Virus record (IMG/VR): IMGVR_UViG_3300017732_000002
DNA from: an uncultured virus (IMG/VR IMGVR_UViG_3300017732_000002)
Taxonomy: Duplodnaviria; Heunggongvirae; Uroviricota; Caudoviricetes
Length of the DNA stretch: 64,000 nt
Strand: one strand, 5' to 3'
Shown piece after piece: positions 4,667 through 42,348 of this stretch (its first letter is position 1; every line of letters begins with the position of its first letter). The position numbers and the translations under genes were made by a program. The notes beneath the pieces were generated by a model. It did no database searches. It was not told the DNA's origin and saw nothing but the letters and a program-made list of their open reading frames with translations.

Positions 4667-4835
4667 TAACTATAATTTGTGGAAAGGTTCTGGCGCCAGG
4701 AAATTGTTCCAATACGTCTTCTCTCTGAAAGTCTTCTCCTAACTGTTTATATATAAAATCATATCCATTAGTTTCACATAGTCTCTTTGCCATGTCACAG
4801 TATGGACACTGTGTTTTTCCCCATATCTCTATCAT
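4605..4835 (-). CDS. glutaredoxin (NrdC-like)
   Basis: CPYC active site, ARTFPQI, IGGY motifs. Confidence 0.92.
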   Translation of the reverse strand: MIEIWGKTQCPYCDMAKRLCETNGYDFIYKQLGEDFQREDVLEQFPGARTFPQIIVNEENIGGYTELEGLHKGGQL

Positions 4836-5398
4836 TTGTTACTGTACTCCATGTTTATTTTAGAATGGTGTTCTTCGTCTGCTCTAACTTTCTTAATTAA
4901 GTCAGATAGTTTAGCACTCTTCTTCATTTTATAATAATCGATAGCGAGTTGTGGTGCAGGTATATTCTCTACTTCTCCACTCTCTACCAGTCTTAAATAC
5001 TCAGTGTATGATTTGACTGCTTCTTGTTCAAAGTATGCAATCATTCTATGTGCAGTTCTAAAGTCCACTATGTAAACTAAGAAGTAAAACAACATAAAAA
5101 TCATTTGTGCAAACAAAACTAGGTATCTTTCAAACCAGTTTGGATTTGCAATTTCTATGAAAAACATTAGGTGCATTCTTTCATTCTCTGCTTCTGCTAA
5201 CATTTCTCGTATCTGAGGCCCCCAACCAGTCTTCATTTTCCTGAGACTTTTGAGGTGTAACCACATACCAGCAACCATGCCTGGCACTCCTGCAACTGTT
5301 TCTAATACAACTGCTCTGTGTCCGTATCTATTTGCAAAAAATGTATCCGCAATGAAACGGAAAAACTTGGTCATGGATTTTGCAAATATATCTCTCAT
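4832..5398 (-). CDS. aox: alternative oxidase (ubiquinol oxidase, AOX)
   Basis: LETVAGVPGMVAGM, EAENERMHL, YFEQEAVKSY, RADEEHH diiron motifs. Confidence 0.93.
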   Translation of the reverse strand: MRDIFAKSMTKFFRFIADTFFANRYGHRAVVLETVAGVPGMVAGMWLHLKSLRKMKTGWGPQIREMLAEAENERMHLMFFIEIANPNWFERYLVLFAQMIFMLFYFLVYIVDFRTAHRMIAYFEQEAVKSYTEYLRLVESGEVENIPAPQLAIDYYKMKKSAKLSDLIKKVRADEEHHSKINMEYSNK

Positions 5399-5838
5399 TT
5401 CAATTCTGTTTCTATAAATTTACCGAGAGTTTGTATGTCTTGTTCTGATAACATTCCTGCCTGTCCCCACATAGTGGCTGACATAGCACCAACTTGTTCC
5501 CCATTCTTATACTGAGTCAATCTATTTATTATGTAATCTGAACTCTGTCCTGCGAGTCTAGGGAATGATGCGATACCTTGTCCTTCTTGACCATGACAGG
5601 CGGCACAACCTGCCCATAAACTTCTAATTGAACTGAACTCGTCTGCGTTTGCGAGTTCTTGTTTTGCTCTGAGTTGTTCTACTACTGTTCCATTGACTCT
5701 TACATACTCTTCATAACATTCACCTGAACAATTACTGTTTCTTGAATAACCTTTATATTCTAAGTCGGGATAGATAACCGTAGCGAAAAAGAGTGCAAGC
5801 AAAGTGCACCCAAATAATACCATTCCTAATTCTCTCAT
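5395..5838 (-). CDS. membrane-anchored class I cytochrome c (c553/c4-like)
   Basis: N-terminal TM, CAACHG heme motif, FPRLAGQ, distal Met in MWGQA. Confidence 0.9.
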   Translation of the reverse strand: MRELGMVLFGCTLLALFFATVIYPDLEYKGYSRNSNCSGECYEEYVRVNGTVVEQLRAKQELANADEFSSIRSLWAGCAACHGQEGQGIASFPRLAGQSSDYIINRLTQYKNGEQVGAMSATMWGQAGMLSEQDIQTLGKFIETELK

Positions 5839-6806: not shown

Positions 6807-7904
6807 TTACAGTTTAAATCCTTCAAATGTATCTTCTTGGATATCTTGTTTGATACCACCTATGACATAAGATTCAATCTCTGTCTCCTGTGGTGCGTTC
6901 TGTAGTCCTCTACTGTTGAACCAGTGTTTAGTCCAAGGCAATGGATTATTTGCACTAGAGATATCATACATTGCATTCAGGCCTATTGCTCTAAGTCTTT
7001 TGTTTGCTATGTACTCTACATATTGTCCAAGAAGTGGTACAGATAATCCTATCATAGAACCTTCTTTAAACAAGAACTCTGCCCATTCTTTCTCTTGATT
7101 CACTGCGTCCTCATACATTGAGTAAACTTCTTTCTCACAATCTTTCATAACCTTATGCATGATTTTATCTTTCTCATGGTTTGCATAACATTTTAGTATG
7201 TGTTGTGATACAGCAAGGTGTTGTGCTTCGTCTCTTGCAATAAGAGATAGTATCTTTGCACTGCCTTCCATGACTTTCAGTTCACCGAAAGCGAAGGAAC
7301 ACGCAAAGGATACAAAGAAGCGTATTCCCTCTAATATATTCACACTGATAAGTGCGAGATATAATGCTTTGTATAGTTCATAGTCGTCAACTTTTTGACC
7401 TAATAACTTCCTACGTCCTAGTTCAATGAAATGGTCGTATTTTTCCGTGACCATATCTGCCCTCTTAATGATTGCTTCTTCGTCTAATATGGTGTCAAAT
7501 ACGTCACTTGGGTCTGAGTATACATTCTTTATGATATGTGTATAACTTCTACTATGGATAGTCTCAAAGAAGTCCCATGTAATAATGCAAGACTCAAGTT
7601 CAGGAAGGGTCACGAATGGTAAGAACGATAATGCTGGTGCCCTACCCTGAACTGAGTCTAGCAAAGTCTGATACCTCAGATTAGAGGTGAATATATGTTT
7701 CTGTGATTTATTCAAAGAGGCATAGTCGTTCCTATCTTTCTGTAAAGATACCTCTTCGGGTCTCCAAAAGAATCCTAATTGTTTCTGTGTCAGTTTATCA
7801 AATATAGGATACTTGAAGTCGTCAAATCGTTGTGTGTTTAAGGCTTCACCAAAGAATATCTTCTCCTTGGTGTAGTCTACTTTGTTCCTGTTAAATACTG
7901 TCAT
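6807..7904 (-). CDS. nrdB: ribonucleotide reductase class Ia beta subunit
   Basis: FFWRPEEV, ETIHSRSY, EGIRFFVSF, RDEAQH, APQETEIESY. Confidence 0.97.
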   Translation of the reverse strand: MTVFNRNKVDYTKEKIFFGEALNTQRFDDFKYPIFDKLTQKQLGFFWRPEEVSLQKDRNDYASLNKSQKHIFTSNLRYQTLLDSVQGRAPALSFLPFVTLPELESCIITWDFFETIHSRSYTHIIKNVYSDPSDVFDTILDEEAIIKRADMVTEKYDHFIELGRRKLLGQKVDDYELYKALYLALISVNILEGIRFFVSFACSFAFGELKVMEGSAKILSLIARDEAQHLAVSQHILKCYANHEKDKIMHKVMKDCEKEVYSMYEDAVNQEKEWAEFLFKEGSMIGLSVPLLGQYVEYIANKRLRAIGLNAMYDISSANNPLPWTKHWFNSRGLQNAPQETEIESYVIGGIKQDIQEDTFEGFKL

Positions 7905-22298: not shown

Positions 22299-23585
22299 TT
22301 ATTTAGACTTCTTTTTAAGAAGTTCTTGTTCTCTCCATGCCATTGCCATTTTGTTACTAGGGAACTTACTTGTCCATGTCAGTAGTTTACTATACAACTG
22401 GTCTGCTTTCTTTTCTAATGATTTAACATCATCATTATTTGTTATCTCTACAAAATCTTTCTTGAACATTGCTCTAAATTTACTTGCATTTTTTTGTGAG
22501 GCGTCCCAATCACCCTTTACTATTTCAGGTGGTAGTTTTCTTGCTCTCATATCGTTTCTTGCTTGTGCGTTATCTAAAGAAGTATTTACGAATACCATTT
22601 TATAATCGTATCCTAGTTTGTCTAACATCTTTTTATAGTTTGCAATCTTGCTTGACTTAGCAGCTGTGGTATCAAATATAAGTCCTAGTCTTCCTTCAAT
22701 ATAATTATCTAGATTCATACCTGTAATCTTCTTTGCTTTCGCACGTACAGGGTCAACTTTAGAGAAGTCTGCACCTCTTAAGTCAAGTCCCAAACCTGCT
22801 TTCTTTAGTCCCACTTCAAATGCTTTGTCCGTGTTTACAAGTTTTAAACCTAGTGGTTTTAGTGCAAGTCTATCTACAACTGTGGATTTACCACTGCCTG
22901 GCCCACCCATAAGAAATACTGCTTTGAATATTCCTTGGTCATAAACACCTTCCATAATCAAATCTTCTCTGATATACCAAGGTATAGTTTCTTCTTTGAT
23001 ACCCATACCAGTTCTAACGTCTTTATATAATGACTGTGCCAATCTTTTGTTTTTACTTGGAACACCTTCTTGGAATGCGTCAAAGTCTCCTTCACCAGCA
23101 AGTGCTCTCATTTTACTTGCACTCATTCCTGATACGTCATCTGCGTCAGGGTCACGTTCACCAGCAGATATAATGTCGATTGAATTGAATTTGTAGAAAC
23201 CGTGTCTTCCTTTTTTTCCGTTATACTTCTTAACAAGCATATCAAACTCTTTGACTCTATCTGAACCTACAACCATACGTACATTCGTATATCCTTTGTT
23301 GTGTAGGTCTACTACAATTTCAAAGATAGTTCGTGCAGGTGTATTGATAACACCAATCTTAGGAAAGAACTTCTTGAGGTATGTAATTTTTTGTTTGTAA
23401 CTAAGAGGATTCTTTTTAGGGTCACTTGAATGTGAAGTGTAAATTAAAGGCACATAACCACCTTTGGAAGATTGTTCCAACTTCTTGACTAGTTTTGCGT
23501 GACCAGTGGTGGGTGGATTGAATCTACCAAATGTAAATGTAGCACCCTTTTCTTTTGCCTCGTTAAATGACCTAAAAGATTTCAC
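22299..23585 (-). CDS. HIGH-superfamily nucleotidyltransferase fused to P-loop kinase (zeta/PNK-like)
   Basis: FGRFNPPTTGH, VGSDRV, SAGERDPD, MSASKMR; then GGPGSGKS, VNTD, IFDTT, ARNDMRAR. Confidence 0.85.
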   Translation of the reverse strand: MKSFRSFNEAKEKGATFTFGRFNPPTTGHAKLVKKLEQSSKGGYVPLIYTSHSSDPKKNPLSYKQKITYLKKFFPKIGVINTPARTIFEIVVDLHNKGYTNVRMVVGSDRVKEFDMLVKKYNGKKGRHGFYKFNSIDIISAGERDPDADDVSGMSASKMRALAGEGDFDAFQEGVPSKNKRLAQSLYKDVRTGMGIKEETIPWYIREDLIMEGVYDQGIFKAVFLMGGPGSGKSTVVDRLALKPLGLKLVNTDKAFEVGLKKAGLGLDLRGADFSKVDPVRAKAKKITGMNLDNYIEGRLGLIFDTTAAKSSKIANYKKMLDKLGYDYKMVFVNTSLDNAQARNDMRARKLPPEIVKGDWDASQKNASKFRAMFKKDFVEITNNDDVKSLEKKADQLYSKLLTWTSKFPSNKMAMAWREQELLKKKSK

Positions 23586-32195: not shown

Positions 32196-32497
32196 TTTTT
32201 CTCCTCGCTTCTTGCGACTTGTTCTTCTAGGAGTTCTACTAGAATATCTCCCATGAGGTTATTTAGGTCATTGTCTTTTTCTAAATCTGACAAGTCCATA
32301 CCTTCGGGAACTCTTCTAATAGTTCTCTGAAAATTTAGTTCAGGTTTTCCTTCTACGAATTCCACCTTTCCATATTGATAAACGGTGTCTTTGAATTCAC
32401 CCTTTATAATTTCTATAGCATAGTGTTCTTCGTCCCTTTGATTAGGATTCTCTACTACTCTATACATTTCACCAATTAAATGTGGTCTGTTACTCAA
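32192..32497 (-). CDS. conserved T4-like hypothetical protein
   Basis: IEIIKGEFKDTVYQYGKV..LNF..MGDILVELLE. Confidence 0.7.
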   Translation of the reverse strand: MSNRPHLIGEMYRVVENPNQRDEEHYAIEIIKGEFKDTVYQYGKVEFVEGKPELNFQRTIRRVPEGMDLSDLEKDNDLNNLMGDILVELLEEQVARSEEKK

Positions 32498-33060
32498 TGC
32501 AATTCTCCTTTTTGAAATGACTTCATTTCCTGTACACCTTTATAATTATGGTGTGCTTGAATTGTCATGTCTGCTATTTCTATTTCAGGATAACTTGTAA
32601 TCAACCTATAAACCAGTCCAGCAACTTCTTGACGTGAGATACTAGGCATAGGTGAATTAAGAAGACCTAGATTTAAAGTTGTCATTTTGTATTTTTTATC
32701 TGAGTTGTATTGTAGGTTATTTGCTAAATGATTGAGAGACGCTTTAGCAGCTGAATAGAGATAACCTTTTGATATGTTTGGTTGAGCAGCTCTTGAAGAA
32801 AAATTAATAATATATTTGTTTCCTTTATCTACCCAAGAATCATGTGCGTATTGAAGTATCTTTGTTTGTTCAAATTCGTCATGTGCAAAATTAATCAAAA
32901 CGTCAACATTAGCCCAACCCCACCAGTTCATACCATTCATTGTGATATCTTCCATACGTGGTGTATGTACTTCTATAGTATCACCTTTAAATGGTGTTGC
33001 TTCTAGTGTGTCTTTAATTGTCTTTGCTAGACCACTACTTCCTGTTATTGCTACTTTCAT
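32494..33060 (-). CDS. short-chain dehydrogenase/reductase (compact SDR)
   Basis: VAITGSSGLA Rossmann loop, INFSS, YSAAK (YxxxK). Confidence 0.85.
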   Translation of the reverse strand: MKVAITGSSGLAKTIKDTLEATPFKGDTIEVHTPRMEDITMNGMNWWGWANVDVLINFAHDEFEQTKILQYAHDSWVDKGNKYIINFSSRAAQPNISKGYLYSAAKASLNHLANNLQYNSDKKYKMTTLNLGLLNSPMPSISRQEVAGLVYRLITSYPEIEIADMTIQAHHNYKGVQEMKSFQKGELH

Positions 33061-33958
33061 AATATTCTTTTACCAAATCAAAAGACGGTTTGCCGAACAG
33101 TGAACCGTCTACACTGCATTTATTACAAGGTGATTGACTTCTATCACCTTTCATTAATCTTTTACGAATCTTTGTCATAGGTTTACTGAACCAAACGTCA
33201 TGTAATGTTGACTGTAGCAAGTTACCTACAACATGTTCTCTCCCCCAATCGTTTGAACAAAATAGAACATCACCGTTCCAATCAACAAACATTTTGTAGA
33301 AGGGGTAATGACAAGGTTTGCCTTTCAAAGAAGTAATGTCTGTTTCTTCTATCCCAACCCAGTCAATTACCCCACTACGGTTATTGAGAATCAATCCATG
33401 TTTCTCAAAGTCTCCCCAATGCATTCTAAATTTATACATATCTTCTCTGACATTCTTTAGCATTTTTTCAAAGTGTGTCATTTGTTCTATACCGTCATAC
33501 AAATTTATGTACAGTAAATCTAGTCCTGCTTTATACAATCTTTCAACATACTTTTCTGTAAGTTTGTCTCCATTTGTATTACATTCAATTGTTGCCATTG
33601 GTAAATTAAATCTAAACTCTTTAACTATCTCTACAAAGTTTGGATTCAATAAATTTTCTCCGAACCCACTGAATGATATTTTACCTGAATACTGATTTTC
33701 TCCTAATTCTTCTGCAATGGTTCTAGCACCTTTAATCGTAAGATGGAGATTCCTGTTGGGAAATACTGTTGGGTCATGTCTTGGACAAAAGACACATGTC
33801 CTGTTGCACAACTCAGTAGTATTAATTTCAACTGTAAGAATCGAGTCAAGAGGTTTGAGTTCATTACTTTTTTTATTCCAATGTTTTTCTTCTTGTTTCC
33901 TTCTGTGTTCTAGGAAATCATATTGGTCAACTGCCTGTGTTGGTATGTTTCTACTCAT
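33035..33958 (-). CDS. radical SAM enzyme with SPASM/Twitch domain
   Basis: CNRTCVFC (CxxxCxxC), SGFGENLL, TNG; C-terminal CHYPF..GDVLFC..GNL..PCNKC. Confidence 0.9.
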   Translation of the reverse strand: MSRNIPTQAVDQYDFLEHRRKQEEKHWNKKSNELKPLDSILTVEINTTELCNRTCVFCPRHDPTVFPNRNLHLTIKGARTIAEELGENQYSGKISFSGFGENLLNPNFVEIVKEFRFNLPMATIECNTNGDKLTEKYVERLYKAGLDLLYINLYDGIEQMTHFEKMLKNVREDMYKFRMHWGDFEKHGLILNNRSGVIDWVGIEETDITSLKGKPCHYPFYKMFVDWNGDVLFCSNDWGREHVVGNLLQSTLHDVWFSKPMTKIRKRLMKGDRSQSPCNKCSVDGSLFGKPSFDLVKEYYESSNNRK

Positions 33959-33966
33959 ATTGAAAC

Positions 33967-34040
33967 TGGAGCGGAGAGATAGGATTGCACTATCGTCTCT
34001 GTGGTGGAACCACAGCGTGTTGCTATTACACTATCTCCGC
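33967..34040 (-). tRNA. tRNA-Gly (anticodon TCC), non-canonical D/T loops, CCA encoded
   Basis: GCGGAGA TA GTGT AATAGCA ACAC G CTGTG GTTCCAC CACAG AGAC GATAG TGCAATC CTATC TCTCCGC TCCA; all four stems pair perfectly; 74 nt. Confidence 0.9.
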
Positions 34041-34045
34041 TTAAC

Positions 34046-35182
34046 TTATCGGATAATGTCAATGTTTTCTGCATTAACATTCCATGTTTCTAGTTCAGTT
34101 CTGAGTCTGTTTTCGGATTTAAGTTTGTCATATCTTTTACCAGCAAGTTTTTTCCACCAGTCAACTACACCTTCTAACTCGTATCTATCATAGTTGGGTG
34201 CTTTCTTTAATTCGTCTGTTTCTAGATTTAAATAATCCACTACATTCTCATAACCATAATTTGAAAAGTATTGTCTCTTCTGTTCCGTTAGACCTTTTGC
34301 ATTTTCAAATGCTTGATTGAATTCTTTTAACTTTTCTTTGTCGTGTATATTTAGTGAGTTCTTTATCATAGAAATTTGTTTCTGAATAGTCTTCATTTTT
34401 CTTGACGAAGCGTCATCATGAACTAATGGTTTACCGTCATTTTTAGTTTCAAACCAATACTTCAAGTCTCTATAGTTTTGGTCATTAATAGAAGGCACAA
34501 AATCTGATACGGTCAATCCTTTAAATCTTAAGAAAGGTTTCATACCGTCATACTGTGAAGAAGTCTTTGACGAACCGTATAAAGAAGTTGTTTCAAAACC
34601 ACAAAATTTTGTATTGTATTTTTTGTTTAATGTTCTTCTAGCATGGTGTGAACAACATATAGCTGCAAGTAACTTACCACCAAGATAATTATATCCAAAT
34701 GGTTGAGTAGGGACAATGGTGAATCCCATAATAACCGAATCATTGAACCTCTTCATTGTATCTTTACACATAGTATCTAAAGGTTTACCTAACATAACAT
34801 TTCTAGGTTTAGAATTAATTGTTGGTGAACCGAATCTAATAAAACCCATAATCTTGTTTGTGTTTTTTTCATACACAACCCACTTCAATGTCTTGCCAGG
34901 AATTGACTTCTCTAAAGCATGAGACGTGGTGATTTCTAGGTAGTTATCATATAGGTCATTTGATAAGACTCTACATTCAAATTCCATGTCATGAGGGTGC
35001 ATTGTGAAGTCACTAAACATATCATCTTCTGGCCCCATGCCAGGCAATGACGTTGGTAGATTAGCAACACGTTCTAATTTGATTTTACGTAGATAATCGT
35101 CAATACGGTCAAACCCATTATAGAAATCTATATAGATTTGCGAGGCGTAAAGAGAATCTTCTTTAGATAGAATTACAGACAT
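34046..35182 (-). CDS. DUF4338/DruA-family protein (Mom-like GNAT fold, inferred)
   Basis: GKTLKWVVYE..KIMGFIRFGSP..KPRN..LG, IVPTQPFGYNYLGGKLLA, FETTSLYG, SQYDG..FLRFKGLT. Confidence 0.75.
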   Translation of the reverse strand: MSVILSKEDSLYASQIYIDFYNGFDRIDDYLRKIKLERVANLPTSLPGMGPEDDMFSDFTMHPHDMEFECRVLSNDLYDNYLEITTSHALEKSIPGKTLKWVVYEKNTNKIMGFIRFGSPTINSKPRNVMLGKPLDTMCKDTMKRFNDSVIMGFTIVPTQPFGYNYLGGKLLAAICCSHHARRTLNKKYNTKFCGFETTSLYGSSKTSSQYDGMKPFLRFKGLTVSDFVPSINDQNYRDLKYWFETKNDGKPLVHDDASSRKMKTIQKQISMIKNSLNIHDKEKLKEFNQAFENAKGLTEQKRQYFSNYGYENVVDYLNLETDELKKAPNYDRYELEGVVDWWKKLAGKRYDKLKSENRLRTELETWNVNAENIDIIR

Positions 35183-35188
35183 ACACCT

Positions 35189-35226
35189 ATTATACTAAAC
35201 AAGCGTATGTCTGTATAGTGGGTTTT
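35189..35226 (-). promoter_or_regulatory. class M promoter for the DUF4338-tRNA-rSAM-SDR unit (leaderless)
   Basis: AAAAACCCA-CTATAC-N18-TATAAT-N6-ATG. Confidence 0.7.
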
Positions 35227-35645
35227 TAAGAAATTTTGATTTCTTGAGGTTTATCTTCTTCGGGTATTTCCCTAATCAACTGAACACTCAAAATACCGTT
35301 ATCACACCAAGCAGAATCAATTACAATATCGTCTGCTAAAGTGAAACTTCTTTTGAATGAACGAGTAGCAAGTCCTTTATGGACATACTCTATTTCCTCG
35401 TCTGCTTCCTTTTTACCCTCAATGATAAGTTGGTTCTTCTCTTTAGTAACAGAGATTTCCGTCTTGTCAAAACCAGCAACTGCAAGTTGAACTGAAAAGT
35501 CCTCATCGTCATTTTTTATAATGTTGTATGGCGGGTAGTTTGTTGAATCATGCATGTTTTCTGCACGATTTAATAGTTGAAGAGTTCTGTCGAACCCGAT
35601 TGCGAATGGGAATGATTTCCCGAAGACATCGTCATAGATAGTCAT
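35226..35645 (-). CDS. small heat-shock protein (Hsp20/IbpA-like)
   Basis: NYPPYNI, LAVAGF, YVHKGLATRSFKRSFTLAD, NGIL, IPEEDKP. Confidence 0.95.
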   Translation of the reverse strand: MTIYDDVFGKSFPFAIGFDRTLQLLNRAENMHDSTNYPPYNIIKNDDEDFSVQLAVAGFDKTEISVTKEKNQLIIEGKKEADEEIEYVHKGLATRSFKRSFTLADDIVIDSAWCDNGILSVQLIREIPEEDKPQEIKIS

Positions 35646-35700
35646 AGTTTTCTCCTTTATTAAGCAAGTTTATATTATGCAACCCCTAATGGGCATTGCA
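35646..35700 (-). promoter_or_regulatory. ROSE-like RNA thermometer in hsp20 5' UTR
   Basis: CUUGCUU-AAUA-AAGGAG hairpin pairing SD with bulged G; upstream hairpin UGCAAUGCCC-AUUA-GGGGUUGCA. Confidence 0.6.
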
Positions 35701-35704
35701 AAAG

Positions 35705-35751: not shown

Positions 35752-35948
35752 ATTGAAATAATTGTATTTATTTCAATATCATGATATGTAGGTTCGTGTA
35801 TGCCCATAACTACAATCTTATCTCCCATAGTCTGAAACTTTTTTTCTACAGTGCAGGCAAGGGTGTGTATTTTGTTTGAAGTTAATGATTGATATTCTAC
35901 TGTCATTTCTTTTTGATATAATTTGTCTTGGACTTCTTTGAATGTCAT
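35730..35948 (-). CDS. hypothetical protein
   Basis: ORF track, ATGA overlap with cyclase. Confidence 0.6.
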   Translation of the reverse strand: MTFKEVQDKLYQKEMTVEYQSLTSNKIHTLACTVEKKFQTMGDKIVVMGIHEPTYHDIEINTIISIKPLEKL

Positions 35949-37795
35949 TTCTTTAGTTTTCTAATTGTGCGTTTAAAGTATGGTGCGTAAATGGTAACAG
36001 GTTCTTCTTTACCTTTTACAGTTATTTTATCAAGTTCTTTTACTTTGATATCGTCAGGCAATTGGTCAAGTGTGTATTGTGAAAGGATAATAGGTGTATC
36101 AAATGTTCTTGTTTGAACTTCAAGACGTGCACCTAGATTAACTGCATCACCGACAACTGAATAATCGAATCTTGCCTCACTTCCCATGTTTCCTACGATG
36201 CATGGGCCAGTATTTATTCCTGTGCCAATTACAACGGGTGGTAAATCATATCCCTGTTCTTTGAGTTCCTTGTTCATTTGTTCAGTAAGCAGTTCAATTT
36301 CCATAGCACTTCTAACCGCCATTTCAGCGTGGTTTGGACAATCCAAAGGGGCATTCCAAAATGCCATCAAACAATCGCCCATATATTTGTCGATGGTTCC
36401 GCCATGTGCAAGAACGACTTTTGACATTGCGTCTAGGAATTTGTTGATAAGTTCAACCAATCCTTCGGGGTCATCTTCTTTCATATACTTTTCGCTTATG
36501 GGAGTGAAGCCAACAATGTCGGCAAAAAGGAAGGAAAGTTCCTTTCTATCTCCACCTAATTTCAATAGTTCAGGATTTTTCTGTAGTTCTTCAACCATGT
36601 CAGGCGATAAATATTTTTGGAACTGTTTCTTTATTTGTTCTTTCAATTGATACGTAGTGAAGTATTTGTTGAAAGATGCGTGACCAAAAACTAACAATGA
36701 GGCAACTGATGAGTAAAAGACATCGAGCAAAATCAAGTTCTCAATCCAAACGTAATACCCCGTATACGCCTGCAATCCAACGACACTTAGACTCCCTATC
36801 CCCGAAAGAACTGTGGGAAGTCTGTAGACCATTGCCAGTATTACTAGAGACGAAAACAGAACAAGAAAAATTTCAAGAAATTCAAGATAGTAGAATCGTT
36901 GTATTTGGAATCCTGTCAAGACGGTCTGAATTAAATTCGCTTGTACTTCATGGGGATACATTGCACCCATTGGGGTTGAAACTGGATTACTCAGACCTGA
37001 AGCAGTCAAACCCCATATAAGGATTTTATCTGCAGGGATTTTGTCCACTGCACTGACACGTTCAAACTGATTCCAAAATGCAATATTAAAGTCTGCATTA
37101 GGTTGTACTGTTAATGGTGGTAGTCTACCTATCCTAACCCATTCTACACCAACCTCAGGCGTAATCTTTATATTGTAGGACTGTTGACCATTCATAACTC
37201 TCAATGTTTCTAGTGCGAGAGAAGGATATATCTGTCCATTCGCCATGACAGCGAGTGGAACTGCACGTACAGTTCCGTCTATAGAAGGTGAAGCACTTAC
37301 AGTACCTACACCGTAAACCGCCTCCTGTAGGGGTTGTATGGGACTAGAGATACCCTCATAACTGTATAACCAGTTTGCAGGGTCACCTTTACCTAACTTT
37401 GCAATACCAATATATGGTGCACTTCCAGTATCTTTTTGATTAGTTGGTGAGGCAGAAAGAAGGGAAAGTCTGTTTCCTAATGCTTGTCTAAGTTCTTCGT
37501 CTTCCCCGAATCTATCAGGTTGTGCAAATGTAGCAGTAAGGACGGAAGGATTTGTTTCGGACGTTTGATTTATCATGTCTGCCCATACGCCTCTAGGGAA
37601 TGGGAACTGTCCGTATTTTTCTAATGTCTTTTCGTCTATGTCAACTAATACAATATCGTCAACCTGTATAGGTTCCTTTTGAGTTTGTAAAAAGTCAAAA
37701 TAGTTGAGTCGGATTGACTCCATGAGAAACGGGTCTGATATACGAAGACCTGCTAGAAGAGCGATGGTTATTAAAACCGTCCACCATTTATACAT
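35945..37795 (-). CDS. CHASE2-domain class III adenylate/guanylate cyclase
   Basis: IVLVDIDEKTL..GQFPFPR, DGTVRAVPL, YPSLALE, TP.G.M.PHEVQAN, 3 TM, FADIVGFT, IDKYMGD, GDAVNLGARLE, VKGK. Confidence 0.93.
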   Translation of the reverse strand: MYKWWTVLITIALLAGLRISDPFLMESIRLNYFDFLQTQKEPIQVDDIVLVDIDEKTLEKYGQFPFPRGVWADMINQTSETNPSVLTATFAQPDRFGEDEELRQALGNRLSLLSASPTNQKDTGSAPYIGIAKLGKGDPANWLYSYEGISSPIQPLQEAVYGVGTVSASPSIDGTVRAVPLAVMANGQIYPSLALETLRVMNGQQSYNIKITPEVGVEWVRIGRLPPLTVQPNADFNIAFWNQFERVSAVDKIPADKILIWGLTASGLSNPVSTPMGAMYPHEVQANLIQTVLTGFQIQRFYYLEFLEIFLVLFSSLVILAMVYRLPTVLSGIGSLSVVGLQAYTGYYVWIENLILLDVFYSSVASLLVFGHASFNKYFTTYQLKEQIKKQFQKYLSPDMVEELQKNPELLKLGGDRKELSFLFADIVGFTPISEKYMKEDDPEGLVELINKFLDAMSKVVLAHGGTIDKYMGDCLMAFWNAPLDCPNHAEMAVRSAMEIELLTEQMNKELKEQGYDLPPVVIGTGINTGPCIVGNMGSEARFDYSVVGDAVNLGARLEVQTRTFDTPIILSQYTLDQLPDDIKVKELDKITVKGKEEPVTIYAPYFKRTIRKLKK

Positions 37796-38338: not shown

Positions 38339-39007
38339 TTAGTTGCCCTGAGAAACGTTTATACTGCAACCACCTACTGTATGGCAGGTATTTGTTATAT
38401 TGTATGACTGATTAGTCGAACCTTGTTGTAATAGATTTAAATTAGTATGTTCTGAACCTTGTAGTGTTATTCTTGCTTGATGACTACCACTTCCTTTTTG
38501 TTCAATATCTGTGATTGAATCATGTGAATTTTGATAATAGTATATGTGTGCGTAATGACTTCCTGAACCTTCTTGCCAGTTTTCGTGTTCTACACCATTA
38601 ACGTGAATGTCTAAATTGAATTCGTGAGTTCCATTTTGGTAAACGTCAACTTCGTTATTGTTACCCCATATGTGTCTACCGTATGTAGCACCGTCAATCT
38701 GTGTTACTGTTTCTGTGTTACCAGTACCGTCAACATCACCACCCCAAGTTCTTCCTGAACCCCAGTATGATACCCAAGAGATTGAGTTACCATTCCCTGA
38801 TTGGGATAGAGTAAAAGTGTTGTTAGCATGTGCAAAAGTAAAATCGATATGGTTATCATATCCTATCTGCGTAATGTTAACATTTGCATTATCACCGTCA
38901 GCAACTTGGTCTATGTGCACATGATTATGTTCGTCACCAGCAAAGCACTGTCCTACAAAGAACAATAAAATTACTGCAATCCCTAAATGAGTTCCAGTTA
39001 TTTTCAT
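38339..39007 (-). CDS. curlin-repeat protein (CsgA/CsgB-like)
   Basis: Signal peptide; repeats N-x-V-x-I-x-Q-x-G-xx-N (NVNITQIGYDN, TFTLSQSGNGN, NLLQQGSTN); track start 39046. Confidence 0.75.
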   Translation of the reverse strand: MKITGTHLGIAVILLFFVGQCFAGDEHNHVHIDQVADGDNANVNITQIGYDNHIDFTFAHANNTFTLSQSGNGNSISWVSYWGSGRTWGGDVDGTGNTETVTQIDGATYGRHIWGNNNEVDVYQNGTHEFNLDIHVNGVEHENWQEGSGSHYAHIYYYQNSHDSITDIEQKGSGSHQARITLQGSEHTNLNLLQQGSTNQSYNITNTCHTVGGCSINVSQGN

Positions 39008-39144
39008 TCTTGATTGTGACGTGGGTCTTGTTGTTGTTTTATCCACTCTTCTATTCTTTTTTGTTGTTCTGCAATTGTTTCTGCTTGGTCTTTAATTTTC
39101 TTTTCTTGAAATCTAAGTCTTTGCTGTTGTTGTTTTTGGCTCAT
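39004..39144 (-). CDS. small Gln/Lys-rich coiled-coil protein (46 aa)
   Basis: Hand-found ORF MSQKQQQQRLRFQEKKIKDQAETIAEQQKRIEEWIKQQQDPRHNQE; TAATG and ATGA coupled. Confidence 0.55.
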   Translation of the reverse strand: MSQKQQQQRLRFQEKKIKDQAETIAEQQKRIEEWIKQQQDPRHNQE

Positions 39145-40277
39145 TAATTTTGTTGTGTAATAATAATATTGATTGCTTGGTCGCCACCCATATTAATTAC
39201 ACTCTCCTTTTCGTTAGTTACGGTCACTATTTGTGCCATTGCGTCTACTGGTAATTTAATACTTATGGTTCCGTTTACTTCACGATAGAACGTAACCAAT
39301 CCACTTCCTGTATCAACTATTGTATTGTACTGCGTGTCTTTATCAAAACCTATAGCAGTACCTTCTATTCCAAATGTATTTCCACCACTGTCTGCAGTTC
39401 TGTTTATCCCTACTTTCCTATCTAACTCTTCTACAATATCAAGTAAGTCCTGTAAAAAGTCAACATCTAATAGGTCTATATCTAATTCAGTAAATTCTAA
39501 TTCACCTTCTGAGTCTTTCAATGCGTCTGCATCAAGACCGTCAAACTCTAAAAAGTCTACGTCCAAGATACCACCGTCATTTGATTCTGTAGCAGACTCC
39601 TCTATCACCCTAGAAATATCTTTGGGTTGACTCACAATAAACATATTATTAATCAAACTTGATGTAATATTGTTTATTACTACAGGTGCAGTTGGGTATG
39701 AATTTAAAGTAGATACCATTGTGGCTTGATATGCTTCTTCTAATACTACGTCTGTACCCGATTCATTACTAACTGTAATCGAACCTGATGCGTCACCATT
39801 TGCGTCAGGCAAAAGTATAATAAGACTTCGCCCGAGTTCATCGATGGTTGTCGTAAAATCTGTGCCATTAATCGCTATGTTAGCAGTTGGCGTAGAAATC
39901 GCAATGTTCGATTTATTCATTTTACCTAGTTTACCTGAGGCAAAACGAGCTGTACCCATTACCATTCTCATCGACATTTTCGATAAGTCGGGATTAGGGT
40001 CATAATATACTTCGTCTATGTAGACCAGTGTATGTTCTGTTAATGCAAGTTCTTCTTCGTCTAAGAACTCAATTAGCATTCTCCCATTCCCAGTTTCCGC
40101 CTCGTCATAGAGGTTTATACTAGGAAAATCAGTAGAGGGTATTTTATTACCTTCTCTGATAATGTTTCCAATACCAGTTTGTTCGACTATGTCTCCTATC
40201 GTATCCGCATAAGAGGGATACGACAGAAGTATAGCACTAATCGTTAGTATCTTTTTGGTTAATTGTAACTGTAGCAT
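39144..40277 (-). CDS. exported FecR-domain protein with acidic C-terminal region
   Basis: Signal peptide; YDEAETGNGRMLIEFLD..LTEHT..ID..YDP..GTARFASG..TPTANIAINGTDF. Confidence 0.85.
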   Translation of the reverse strand: MLQLQLTKKILTISAILLSYPSYADTIGDIVEQTGIGNIIREGNKIPSTDFPSINLYDEAETGNGRMLIEFLDEEELALTEHTLVYIDEVYYDPNPDLSKMSMRMVMGTARFASGKLGKMNKSNIAISTPTANIAINGTDFTTTIDELGRSLIILLPDANGDASGSITVSNESGTDVVLEEAYQATMVSTLNSYPTAPVVINNITSSLINNMFIVSQPKDISRVIEESATESNDGGILDVDFLEFDGLDADALKDSEGELEFTELDIDLLDVDFLQDLLDIVEELDRKVGINRTADSGGNTFGIEGTAIGFDKDTQYNTIVDTGSGLVTFYREVNGTISIKLPVDAMAQIVTVTNEKESVINMGGDQAINIIITQQN

Positions 40278-40962
40278 TATCAGAACTCAACTGTAAGTCA
40301 ATCTTGCCTGGGCATGTTTTATTTCCACATGTACCTGACTGTTGAATAATATCCATATTGATACTATCACCCGTATGAACCACTTTTAATTCATGGTCAG
40401 ATGCGTCAAGTTGTTTTGTGTCAACGTTATTACTGTCACCAGTAATTTCCATTTCCCATTTAGCTTGGTCTGAATCTATGTCTATAAAGAAATCGTTTGA
40501 ATCTCCTATTAGCGTTAAATCAAAATCCAAATAGTTAGCACTAGCGGCATAACCTTGGTCATAATCCCAAGTGTTACTGCTACCTGTAACTGCGACATTG
40601 ATGTTTGAGTTATCAGAATCACCAGTATCGCCTATATTCCAATCAAAGATATTACTGTCACCAGTGAATACCATATTAATGGTAGAACTATCTAACACAA
40701 CAGGCCCGAATAGTTGGTTGCTGTTACCGATTTGGTCAAGGTTGAACGTATTCGTTGTACCTGTCAAAATCATATCAGTAGCAACCTGACCGTTTACTAT
40801 AGTTCCACCGAATTTATTTCCGTAACCAACTTGGTCAATCGTTAATGTTAACGTATCACCTGATTGTTGCAAAAATATTTCGTTGTCGTCATCAGCTAAA
40901 AGAGGCATTACAGACATTGCAAACAATAAACCTAAACATAATTTTAGTTTATTCATTTTCAT
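40237..40962 (-). CDS. curlin-repeat protein (CsgA/CsgB-like)
   Basis: Signal peptide; DNEIFLQQSG, IDQVGYGN, LDQIGNSN, then repeated xTGDSN; track start 41007. Confidence 0.75.
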   Translation of the reverse strand: MKMNKLKLCLGLLFAMSVMPLLADDDNEIFLQQSGDTLTLTIDQVGYGNKFGGTIVNGQVATDMILTGTTNTFNLDQIGNSNQLFGPVVLDSSTINMVFTGDSNIFDWNIGDTGDSDNSNINVAVTGSSNTWDYDQGYAASANYLDFDLTLIGDSNDFFIDIDSDQAKWEMEITGDSNNVDTKQLDASDHELKVVHTGDSINMDIIQQSGTCGNKTCPGKIDLQLSSDNATVTINQKDTND

Positions 40963-41857
40963 ATTCGTCTTTATTCTCCTCGATGGCATGTCTTTCATTA
41001 CCGCCATCTATTTTATGAGGGTGTCTATGTCGGCCGTCAATTGTCCAGTATTTTCTATCGTGTCCTTGATAAATCATTTCTAGAACAGCAGCTTCTATAG
41101 CAGCCCTCGTTGCAAAAGTCACCGACTCATTCTCTGTCACACCGTCCTCAATTTCAATGAGTTGGGTATCCATATCTACAAATTTAAATACATCGAATCC
41201 TTGCGATACACTTAGTACAGTCTTCTTGGTCTGAACGTTCATAAGAACTTCACCAGTAAGTGTACTAACTGCTCTTAAAGAAACGACAATCGTATCTCTA
41301 CGATAAGCAGTCGAGTGTCCAATCCCTAATGTTCTTGCACCTCGGCCACCAGTTTCCATATTGGTATCATACCCTATAATTCCACCTTCGAGTATGATGC
41401 CAGCAAATAAAAGAGGTTGAATAGTTTCTTTACTTTCACCCTCTTCTTGAAATTGTTCTCTTGTACTTCTGACTATTTGTCTTTCACGTACAAGATTATC
41501 TAATCCTTCTCTTTCAACTACACGGAACCAACTTCCACCCCCTGCAGTTTTGAGTGCGTCTATCAACATTGCAGTCACTCCTTGACTGACTGCTGTACTA
41601 AATGTTGCGACACCGTCTTGTCTTTTTCTTTGTCCTGTTAGGTCTTTAAACCCATAAACAGCAACCACTGGCATAACCTCAGCGGCTGGTAAATCTAATA
41701 ATAATGCATATGCTGGAAGTTTGATTGCTTCAGGCTCTTCAATACATTCTCCGTACTCATTCATTATCAGAGATGTACAGGAATCTTTCATGTGCGGTAT
41801 CCCTGCACAACTAGATAGCAAGAGTCCGAGCACTCCAACTAATAAAAGATTCTTCAC
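40949..41857 (-). CDS. csgG: curli secretion pore CsgG
   Basis: Lipobox LSSC; VAVYGFKDLTGQRK, FSTAVSQG, WFRVVEREGLDNLVRERQIVRSTR, EGGIIGYD, GG.GAR.LGIG. Confidence 0.95.
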   Translation of the reverse strand: MKNLLLVGVLGLLLSSCAGIPHMKDSCTSLIMNEYGECIEEPEAIKLPAYALLLDLPAAEVMPVVAVYGFKDLTGQRKRQDGVATFSTAVSQGVTAMLIDALKTAGGGSWFRVVEREGLDNLVRERQIVRSTREQFQEEGESKETIQPLLFAGIILEGGIIGYDTNMETGGRGARTLGIGHSTAYRRDTIVVSLRAVSTLTGEVLMNVQTKKTVLSVSQGFDVFKFVDMDTQLIEIEDGVTENESVTFATRAAIEAAVLEMIYQGHDRKYWTIDGRHRHPHKIDGGNERHAIEENKDEYENE

Positions 41858-42348
41858 TAAAAACCCCCAGTACCAATTGGAATTTCAATAGTTGTTGTAG
41901 TTCCGTCACTACCGACAATTGTCATTACAATCCAATCGTCACATAGTCCGTCATCAGTACATATGTTCTTCCTTTCGTAAGTAATTGTATTTCCTTCCAG
42001 TGTAAACGTTCCGTAGTTTGCACCTTCTTCGTTTGAGAACATGTTTTCAACTAACTGTTTTGATAGCTGAGCATAGATTCTCGATTCCAAATTCCTTATG
42101 AATTTGGCTAAAACTGTATTTTCTGCTTCTCTTTGCTGTTTCAAAAGAGCTGCCCTAATGTCCTCAGCAATCTTGTCTGTCCTAGACTTCTCCTGATTCT
42201 CAATTGTCAAGTAATGGGCAGAAGTTCCCACGCCACTAAAGCTGGGGTTTTTAAATTTATGTACCAGTTCGTCTGATTGTACTGTCGGAGAAATGACACA
42301 TAGTGTTATCATTGCAAATGTTATACCAAAAATTTTACTTCTTTTCAT
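41857..42348 (-). CDS. csgF: curli assembly factor CsgF
   Basis: Signal peptide then ELVHKFKNPSFSG; FIRNLESRIYAQLS; adjacent to csgG. Confidence 0.88.
   Translation of the reverse strand: MKRSKIFGITFAMITLCVISPTVQSDELVHKFKNPSFSGVGTSAHYLTIENQEKSRTDKIAEDIRAALLKQQREAENTVLAKFIRNLESRIYAQLSKQLVENMFSNEEGANYGTFTLEGNTITYERKNICTDDGLCDDWIVMTIVGSDGTTTTIEIPIGTGGF

Follow-up and report, generated by a model that had tools for sequence, protein, structure and literature searches.

A non-canonical tRNA-Gly gene linked to a DUF4338/DruA-family gene in T4-like marine phages: a proposed dedicated glycine donor for a GNAT-fold protein

The phage Mu protein Mom takes glycine from Gly-tRNAGly and attaches it to adenine N6 in double-stranded DNA, and in the available part of the paper that describes it (PMC13219725, 2026) this is so far the only tRNA-dependent modification of DNA. 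According to the same text, Mom has four essential residues (R111, S124, D149 and R151) and a helix-turn-helix (HTH)-like insertion. Dedicated non-ribosomal tRNAs have so far been described only in staphylococci, as stated in the available part of PMC7826273. In Staphylococcus aureus, non-proteogenic tRNA-Gly species (NP1-3) feed the GNAT-fold glycyl transferases FmhB, FemA and FemB. These tRNAs carry TGC or TGT in place of TTC and have a 6-bp anticodon stem and a 5-nucleotide (nt) loop; they bind EF-Tu and the ribosome weakly and are still charged by glycyl-tRNA synthetase (GlyRS), and S. aureus and S. epidermidis are so far the only species reported to have them (PMC7826273). Here we describe a tRNA-Gly gene and an adjoining gene of the DUF4338/DruA family, whose product has a predicted GNAT fold, in a 64,000-nt stretch of DNA from an uncultured virus (IMG/VR IMGVR_UViG_3300017732_000002). 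The whole stretch is called the window below. These two themes would meet in a donor tRNA that is encoded by a virus and linked to another GNAT family. A first-pass annotation of this DNA, made from the letters alone, had described the use of Gly-tRNAGly by Mom as reported, and the available text of PMC13219725 now shows it.

The DUF4338 gene (34046..35182, minus strand; identified with Pfam, PHROG, PADLOC and an AF2 model) encodes a protein of 378 amino acids (aa), which we propose to be a glycyl transferase. The tRNA-Gly(UCC) gene (33967..34040, minus strand; identified with ARAGORN and Rfam) follows it after 5 nt and is the proposed glycine donor; its CCA is encoded, and both its elbow and its anticodon loop are non-canonical. 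Another 8 nt separate the tRNA from the next gene. Both the position of the tRNA and the two gaps had been given correctly in the first-pass annotation. What is newly added here is a control for the co-occurrence of the two genes and the anatomy of the tRNA.

We surveyed 80 IMG/VR loci with homologs of the DUF4338 protein (58-100% identical). A tRNA-Gly-like gene was present at 54 of these loci, 40 of them recognized by ARAGORN and 14 more by a pattern search. The only tRNA of another type that ARAGORN found in the 80 loci was one tRNA-Arg. There were at least five arrangements of the two genes. The tRNA was 9-11 nt downstream of the DUF4338 gene in the clade of the window; about 600 nt upstream of it, the two being separated by a peroxiredoxin gene; 11-17 nt upstream of it, directly after gp43; 564 nt downstream; or about 1.1 kb downstream. 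The pair was found in at least three genome contexts (between hsp20 and gp43, between gp43 and uvsX, and with head genes or UvsY). On a quick tree, the phylogeny used throughout, the arrangements fall into three clades, and a cyanophage clade has no nearby tRNA. In one relative, ARAGORN also called a permuted tmRNA overlapping a tRNA-Arg (L080:4595-5014), which is probably a false call.

As a control, we used 80 loci picked by gp43. The interval from hsp20 to gp43 was spanned in 37 of these, and the other 43 were dropped because upstream sequence was lacking. By pattern search, tRNA-Gly was present in 14 of the 17 DUF4338-positive intervals and in none of the 20 DUF4338-negative ones. Whole contigs of ten DUF4338-negative relatives (one of 151 kb, 83% complete) contained no DUF4338, and the matches to a covariance model on these contigs were to tRNA-Asp, Glu, Ala, Ser and Thr, never to tRNA-Gly. 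None of three DUF4338-negative cyanophages had any tRNA within 9 kb of gp43. The 20 DUF4338-negative intervals and these three cyanophages led us to reject the idea that the tRNA-Gly has long resided between hsp20 and gp43 irrespective of the GNAT.

The association was also seen in the reverse direction. A loose scan of IMG/VR for the acceptor-stem pattern returned at least 119 stretches, of which 80 were examined; most belonged to large-phage tRNA clusters or were matches by chance. There were 20 loci with a solitary tRNA-Gly. DUF4338 was within 3.5 kb at 12 of them and elsewhere on the contig at two more, and the remaining six were on fragments at most 29% complete. The linkage foreseen in the earlier annotation is found across many relatives, and the tRNA-Gly is absent from relatives without DUF4338. 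We conclude that the GNAT and a dedicated, non-proteogenic-looking tRNA-Gly are a linked pair, and this conclusion is well supported. A literature search found no paper that ties DUF4338 to a tRNA (bioRxiv supplements were outside its scope).

The window tRNA-Gly scored 53.6 bits against Rfam RF00005 (cut-off 29), compared to 69.8 bits for a tRNA-Arg encoded elsewhere on the contig. Its minimum-energy fold is the cloverleaf (fold z -3.9). The D loop (AAUAGCA) lacks GG, and the T loop (UGCAAUC) has a G at position 55. These unusual loops had been noticed from the sequence before, and the tRNA does carry traits described for the staphylococcal non-proteogenic tRNA-Gly. Like the staphylococcal tRNA-Gly(UCC), the window tRNA combines TGC in the T loop with a 6-bp anticodon stem and a 5-nt loop. 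It differs in being phage-encoded and in belonging to a family with A34 variants, and its weakness for EF-Tu is proposed by analogy.

We aligned 32 distinct sequences of DUF4338-linked tRNA-Gly. Paired positions were paired in 96.4% of cells, and 15 of the 21 pairs had changes on both sides; none of 500 shuffles scored as high. The tRNA-Gly is under structural selection. Invariant in all 32 sequences were G1-C72, C2-G71, G3-C70, U73, the encoded CCA, C35, C36 and A37. With the exception of CCA and A37, these are what we take to be the identity set of bacterial GlyRS. The rest of the anticodon region was less conventional. Position 34 was U or A, with at least four switches among close relatives as read from the quick tree, and position 33 was G in one clade. 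Positions 32 and 38 formed a Watson-Crick pair in all 32 sequences (CG in 13, UA in 12, AU in 5 and GC in 2), which leaves a loop of 5 nt. The T loop had TGC, the type of the window, in 13 sequences and TTC in another 13; it had ATC in three and GGC in one, and the arm was shortened in two. Both the D-loop GG and the T-loop TTC were kept in only seven of the 32. In contrast, all 25 other tRNAs read from the same or related phages kept both, including the contig's own tRNA-Arg and three tRNA-Gly from cyanophage clusters. Pair 51-63 was mostly A-U, U-A or G-U, which are presumably weak for EF-Tu. From its sequence features, the tRNA-Gly looks built for charging and not for decoding.

The same pair is carried by cultured phages. 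A blastn search with the window tRNA against 50,697 phage records gave no match, and aberrant tRNA-Gly(ACC) genes were found in the pelagiphages HTVC008M (record positions 91140-91213; L209:1501-1574) and Mosig (record positions 7779-7852). Their T loops are AGC and GGC, respectively, and their D loops lack GG. The distance to DUF4338 is 8.3 kb in HTVC008M and 6.5 kb in Mosig. ARAGORN missed the Mosig copy, and HTVC008M is listed with 0 tRNAs in Table 1 of PMC7029224 (available part). A dedicated-donor role would account for this tRNA, which that table leaves out.

The DUF4338 protein matched Pfam PF14236 over residues 81-192 (34.7 bits, cut-off 27; E 1.4e-8), phrog_19197 (E 3e-161) and PADLOC DruA1 (E 4.8e-6). 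Its AF2 model had a pLDDT of 91 from a 44-sequence alignment and contained one GNAT core with large helical additions. All the matches that Foldseek listed against the PDB were GNATs, although weak ones (E about 1e-2), and Mom was not among them. An exhaustive comparison with 48,161 solved chains (VIA-align) placed Mu Mom first (8bv8_B; Z 9.7, rmsd 3.8 over 171 aligned residues). Next came ordinary acetyltransferases, with Z from 9.4 to 8.0 and 129-174 residues aligned, and FemA had Z 8.6. There were 41 chains with Z of at least 8, and those shown were nearly all GNAT-type acyltransferases. By its predicted structure, then, the protein is a GNAT, as the first-pass annotation had anticipated. 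DUF4338 has also been described as a GNAT domain by the Aravind group (PMC10853773, available part), and ORF152 of phage S-SCSM2R, which is 55% identical to the DUF4338 protein, has been called "structurally similar to Mu-mom" (PMC12801897, available part).

The term "Mom-like" should be read here as nominal first place within a tie, because the Z score of Mom is within 1 unit of those of acetyl-CoA GNATs. A Pfam scan gave no match to the Mom family PF25680 at E ≤ 0.01. Alignment of the DUF4338 profile with hhalign gave a probability of 0.2% both against the Mu Mom sequence and against a 22-member Mom profile. The motif order that had been read as a parallel to Mom-like GNATs could not be demonstrated, and with no PF25680 match and no profile similarity the DUF4338 protein falls outside the Mom family. 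When PDB sequences were searched with a DUF4338 profile, nothing real was returned either.

The likeness to Mu Mom (PF25680, PDB 8BV8) is one of fold and of setting in a phage gene. Residues 62-321 of the DUF4338 protein aligned with residues 20-232 of Mom, covering 171 of 202 Mom residues. The Mom insertion lies at about residues 175-209 (PMC13219725, available part), and in the DUF4338 model helices at 234-296 lie between strands 219-223 and 303-307; the two may be equivalent. The DUF4338 protein is longer (378 versus 231 aa), with extra helical parts at both termini. The tRNAs also differ, in that Mom works with host tRNAs, all three isoacceptors included, and with none from the phage (PMC13219725, available part), whereas a phage tRNA adjoins the gene in the window. 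The available text of PMC13219725 does not contain the term DUF4338.

Two other families were compared. Fem-type aminoacyl-tRNA transferases have two tandem GNAT domains. The DUF4338 model has one GNAT core, and the FemA match covered 147 of 400 FemA residues, so the partner in the window is a single-core GNAT and not a tandem protein of the staphylococcal kind. DruA of the Druantia type I defense system belongs to the same Pfam family (PF14236, PADLOC DruA1), above the curated cut-off. The similarity to DruA is confined to residues ~81-192, and the phage branch has its own PHROG. There are no DruB-E genes nearby, and the gene lies in a phage replication module, not in a defense island. A limited literature search, which included a paper on YprA helicases, found no statement of the activity of DruA itself.

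Invariant or nearly invariant residues in the family were G113, S119, R127, Q160, P161, G163, G168, G169, K170 and L171, followed by T198, T199, S200, L201, G203, Y211, W343 and R350. GNATs bind the acyl-CoA pyrophosphate with a loop after strand 4 of the form Q/R-x-x-G-x-G/A. The corresponding region here reads Q160-P-F-G163-Y-N, then L-G168-G169-K170, and is partly motif-like, with the last G/A replaced. Homologs were abundant: there were 6,573 DUF4338 matches among 8,000 candidates scored. DUF4338 was present in 31 of 50,697 phage records, and roughly 465 marine T4-like records were found with gp43.

We propose that the DUF4338 protein is a glycyl transferase fed by Gly-tRNA, with the acceptor left open and DNA favored, and we judge the chances of this to be about even. 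The linkage and the anatomy of the tRNA suggest that the odd tRNA hands glycine to the neighboring enzyme. The evidence supports a functional unit of two parts, the DUF4338 GNAT and the tRNA-Gly, rather than four. In the proposed mechanism, the tRNA would be cut from a polycistronic transcript and then charged by the host GlyRS, a step suggested by the invariance of G1-C72, C2-G71, G3-C70, U73, CCA, C35 and C36. Its altered elbow and 5-nt anticodon loop would keep it off EF-Tu and the ribosome, by analogy with the staphylococcal non-proteogenic tRNA-Gly. In the manner of Mom, FemX and FmhB, the GNAT would then move glycine from the 3' end of the tRNA to the acceptor, a step to which both fold and gene linkage point. 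The acceptor would most likely be phage DNA. The most specific form of the proposal is that pelagimyophage-type phages have a private, translation-disabled tRNA-Gly that serves solely as donor to a DruA-family GNAT, and that this GNAT glycylates their own DNA, with Mom-like chemistry in an unrelated branch of GNATs. We regard this form as a tentative possibility, with the balance against it.

Glycyl transfer would give DUF4338/DruA a first testable function, and it would point to a new modification, of DNA or of something else, in very abundant marine viruses. If the most specific form holds, in which the phages glycylate their own DNA, the whole DUF4338 family, including Druantia DruA and DndF fusions, would be aminoacyl-tRNA-dependent modifiers of nucleic acids.

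Several observations weigh against the glycyl-transfer proposal. At 26 of the 80 DUF4338 loci there was no tRNA-Gly on the contig; three of these contigs were 40-56 kb long, and the covariance model built from the 32 distinct copies added none, its sole match being a tRNA-Asp. The tRNA-Gly was not near DUF4338 in four of five cyanophages checked. In S-SCSM2R, S-PRM1 and DSL-LC02 the tRNA-Gly is canonical and part of an ordinary tRNA cluster remote from DUF4338, and S-SSM7 has a canonical tRNA-Gly 3.2 kb downstream of it. The seven linked tRNAs with both GG and TTC are fully canonical. The co-occurrence counts are not phylogenetically independent, and the DUF4338-negative loci may be one clade. 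Glycine is encoded mainly by GGT (about 53%) and GGA (about 28%), whether the lineage has the TCC or the ACC anticodon; each anticodon would thus be useful for decoding, and a decoding role is conceivable. Among arginine codons AGA ranks first, and a tRNA-Arg(UCU) is encoded on the contig as well. Because Mom ties with ordinary acetyl-CoA GNATs in the structural comparison, the fold does not name the donor. The hhalign comparisons show no sequence similarity to Mom. Finally, in a MetaGPA table DUF4338 was in 0 selected versus 10 unselected contigs; that screen was for cytosine modification.

Many of these observations can be accommodated if the tRNA-Gly is a divergent but working decoder of GGA and GGU in an AT-rich phage and merely a neighbor co-inherited within a variable part of the replication module, with the DUF4338 protein using acyl-CoA or any host aminoacyl-tRNA. 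The match of tRNA-Gly and tRNA-Arg to the common codons, the canonical tRNA-Gly(UCC) that DUF4338-bearing cyanophages keep in distant clusters, the canonical minority of linked tRNAs and the loci without a tRNA would all fit, and tRNAs with A34 (Thr-AGT) are also known from tRNA clusters of other phages. We nevertheless consider this explanation rather unlikely. The oddities of elbow and anticodon loop are confined to tRNA-Gly, the other 25 tRNAs being canonical; the 32-38 pair is Watson-Crick without exception; and position 33 is G in one clade. Position 34 switches between U and A without a matching shift in codons. The tRNA is missing from all 20 DUF4338-negative intervals and all ten such contigs, which carry other tRNAs, and its closeness to DUF4338 is kept through at least five arrangements. 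Codon use itself failed as a discriminator, since both anticodons fit common codons.

A second rival makes the tRNA the target. The GNAT would acylate Gly-tRNA-Gly, as TacT-type toxins do, or modify the body of the tRNA, and so reshape translation; alternatively, the tRNA-like RNA would be mainly a processing site at which RNase P divides the transcript. GNAT toxins that acetylate charged tRNAs do exist, and TacT acts on Gly-tRNAGly (PMC13219725, available part). One bacterial GNAT toxin chain, 7byy_A, was among the VIA-align matches (Z 8.0), and the tRNA lies 5 nt after one open reading frame (ORF) and 8 nt before the next. With 378 aa and large helical additions, however, the DUF4338 protein is unlike the small toxin GNATs, and no antitoxin-like partner was seen. 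The residues kept in the tRNA are exactly the synthetase identity set and CCA, which fits a charged donor, and a mere processing signal would not need invariant C35 and C36. We consider a target role improbable.

The two genes downstream of the tRNA are separate from the pair. The first (33035..33958, minus strand; 307 aa) encodes a radical SAM/SPASM enzyme (rSAM; Pfam Radical_SAM E 6.8e-14 and SPASM E 3.3e-13, both above cut-offs) and begins after the 8-nt gap. Its cluster motif CX3CX2C reads CNRTCVFC, and among solved structures it is closest to BtrN, a radical SAM dehydrogenase from the butirosin pathway (PDB 4M7T; E 5.8e-22, residues 33-282), which has the same motif and a SPASM/twitch-type C-terminal cluster domain. 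The second (32494..33060, minus strand; 188 aa), overlapping the first by 26 nt, encodes a short SDR-like protein. Its match to adh_short was below the cut-off (22.2 bits against 26.6; E 1.1e-4), and it matched the FabG-like phrog_3142 (E 1.1e-7). SDRs have a Gly-rich NAD(P) motif and YxxxK; by reading, this protein has TGSSGLA and YSAAK; PDB sequence matches had E 0.13 or worse. Unlike BtrN, the rSAM is paired with this short SDR-like protein and travels with it as a cassette among marine T4-like phages.

In a survey of 80 loci with the rSAM (79-100% identical), an SDR adjoined it at 77. Both DUF4338 and tRNA were present at 20 of the 80, and neither at the other 60; in one of these (L322) the rSAM-SDR pair lies beside RNase H. 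In one of the 20 loci that have all of these genes (L371), the rSAM-SDR pair is separated from DUF4338 and located on the upstream side of hsp20. Conversely, rSAM and SDR homologs were present at only 19 of the 80 DUF4338 loci, all with DUF4338 at least 85% identical and all in one clade (99% support). The same slot in other lineages is empty or holds a cytidylyltransferase-like gene and a 328-aa ORF; searches gave no explanation for a 328-aa ORF in L052 or for a 374-aa ORF in L080. Because the rSAM and SDR occur without DUF4338 or tRNA at 60 of their own 80 loci, they are an independent two-gene cassette, and in the proposed mechanism this would be a mobile one that landed downstream of the pair in this one clade. 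The four-part pathway of the first-pass annotation, in which DUF4338 glycylates a base via a private tRNA and rSAM and SDR elaborate the adduct, was rejected on these two surveys and, given also the likeness of the rSAM to the dehydrogenase BtrN, is improbable even for this clade, despite the tight packing (5-nt and 8-nt gaps, 26-nt overlap), the order kept in all 19 clade loci and the presence of other small-molecule enzymes in the slot of other lineages.

DNA is favored as the acceptor of the proposed glycyl transfer because of the place of the gene in the replication module, the nominal first rank of Mom among fold matches and ParB-like partners of DNA-binding type in sister clades. The DUF4338 gene sits among replication genes, its place in cyanophages being between gp44 and gp62. 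Where the tRNA is about 1.1 kb downstream, in one clade, a conserved ~328-aa protein is encoded between DUF4338 and the tRNA (L101:3601-4587, minus strand; L084:4447-5436, plus strand; a homolog in L220:2713-3675, plus strand), and its N-terminal half is predicted to have a ParB/Srx fold. The order DUF4338, partner ORF, tRNA is kept in two settings, with head genes (L101) and with UvsY (L084). A homolog of the partner adjoins DUF4338 in L220 and the tRNA in L127, and Mosig has one located 632 nt upstream of its tRNA-Gly. There was no homolog in the window.

The partner ORF had no sequence match in Pfam, PHROG or the PDB. Its structural model, based on only six sequences, had a pLDDT of 72 and was closest to PadC (Z 9.7, 93 residues aligned) and pNOB8 ParB-N (Z 9.2, 154 aligned), the latter alignment reaching into the helical DNA-binding part. 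KorB and sulfiredoxin followed (both Z 8.6), and unrelated chains reached at most 6.3. These matches point to a ParB/Srx fold. The slot between gp44 and gp62 is occupied by dam in the DUF4338-negative phages S-RSM4 (L224:5560-6393) and P-RSM1 (L225:1-307), and this Dam is absent from four of five DUF4338-bearing phages. The sample is too small to use, and the idea that DUF4338 replaces Dam was dropped for that reason.

The DUF4338 gene is preceded, after a gap of 43 nt, by hsp20 (35645-35226, minus strand). A conserved hairpin at the gap (35174..35215, minus strand) was predicted by RNAalifold with 17 pairs, five of which had changes on both sides. Seven close relatives count in this alignment; the eighth entry, set wrongly, consists mainly of gap. 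TATAAT lies near the tip of the hairpin, and the DUF4338 ATG (35182) is in its 3' arm. The hairpin may be a terminator for hsp20, an occluder of the DUF4338 start codon, or both. In the record of phage Mu, translational activation of mom is the annotated function of Com. A promoter had been proposed at this position. A TATACA-17-TATAAT sequence is present at 35217-35189, but such sites are no commoner than chance (18 observed; 15.9 ± 4.1 in shuffles). A sequence resembling the ROSE_3 RNA thermometer is located just upstream of the hsp20 start (35640-35702, minus strand; 37.2 bits, below the gathering threshold of 43; E 3e-5).

The window is part of an 80.7-kb record that is about 44% complete. 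The source virus is a marine myovirus, T4-like and of pelagimyophage type, with gp45, gp44, gp62, regA, gp43, uvsX, gp41, UvsW, UvsY, ribonucleotide reductase and a curli CsgG/CsgF set. The GC content is 36.6%, and 84 of 85 ORFs are on the minus strand. The three ORFs at 35182-34046, 33958-33035 and 33060-32494 had been placed correctly, all on the minus strand. They had been taken as a unit ending at 32494, but genes on the same strand continue with overlaps past the SDR through a 101-aa ORF, a lysozyme gene and a 78-aa ORF to gp43. The tRNA-Gly had been called the only tRNA in the 64 kb; by ARAGORN this holds within the window, and a second tRNA, Arg(TCT), is elsewhere on the contig. Overall, what had been seen in the sequence is real apart from the promoter, and its interpretation was half right: the linked GNAT and tRNA-Gly stand, and the four-gene pathway and membership in the Mom family do not. 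The second tRNA, Arg(UCU) (79214-79287, outside the window), is fully canonical (69.8 bits) and matches the dominant AGA codon.

There were several other features of note in the window, all on the minus strand where a strand is given. An ORF at 35945-37795 encodes a 616-aa protein with a CHASE2 sensor fused to an adenylate/guanylate cyclase domain, with 55-100% identity in many relatives. The curli-type set at 38339-42348 comprises a curlin repeat protein, a FecR-like protein, CsgG and CsgF, and a curli operon is among the pelagimyophage genes named in PMC7029224 (available part). An ORF at 22299-23276, amid genes of unassigned function, has AAA_33 and Zeta_toxin kinase-type domains (E about 1e-10). 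At 4832-5838 and 1561-1998 the phage has genes for a PTOX-like alternative oxidase, for a cytochrome c and for a NifU-like scaffold. Four genes for 2OG-Fe(II) oxygenases are scattered over the window.

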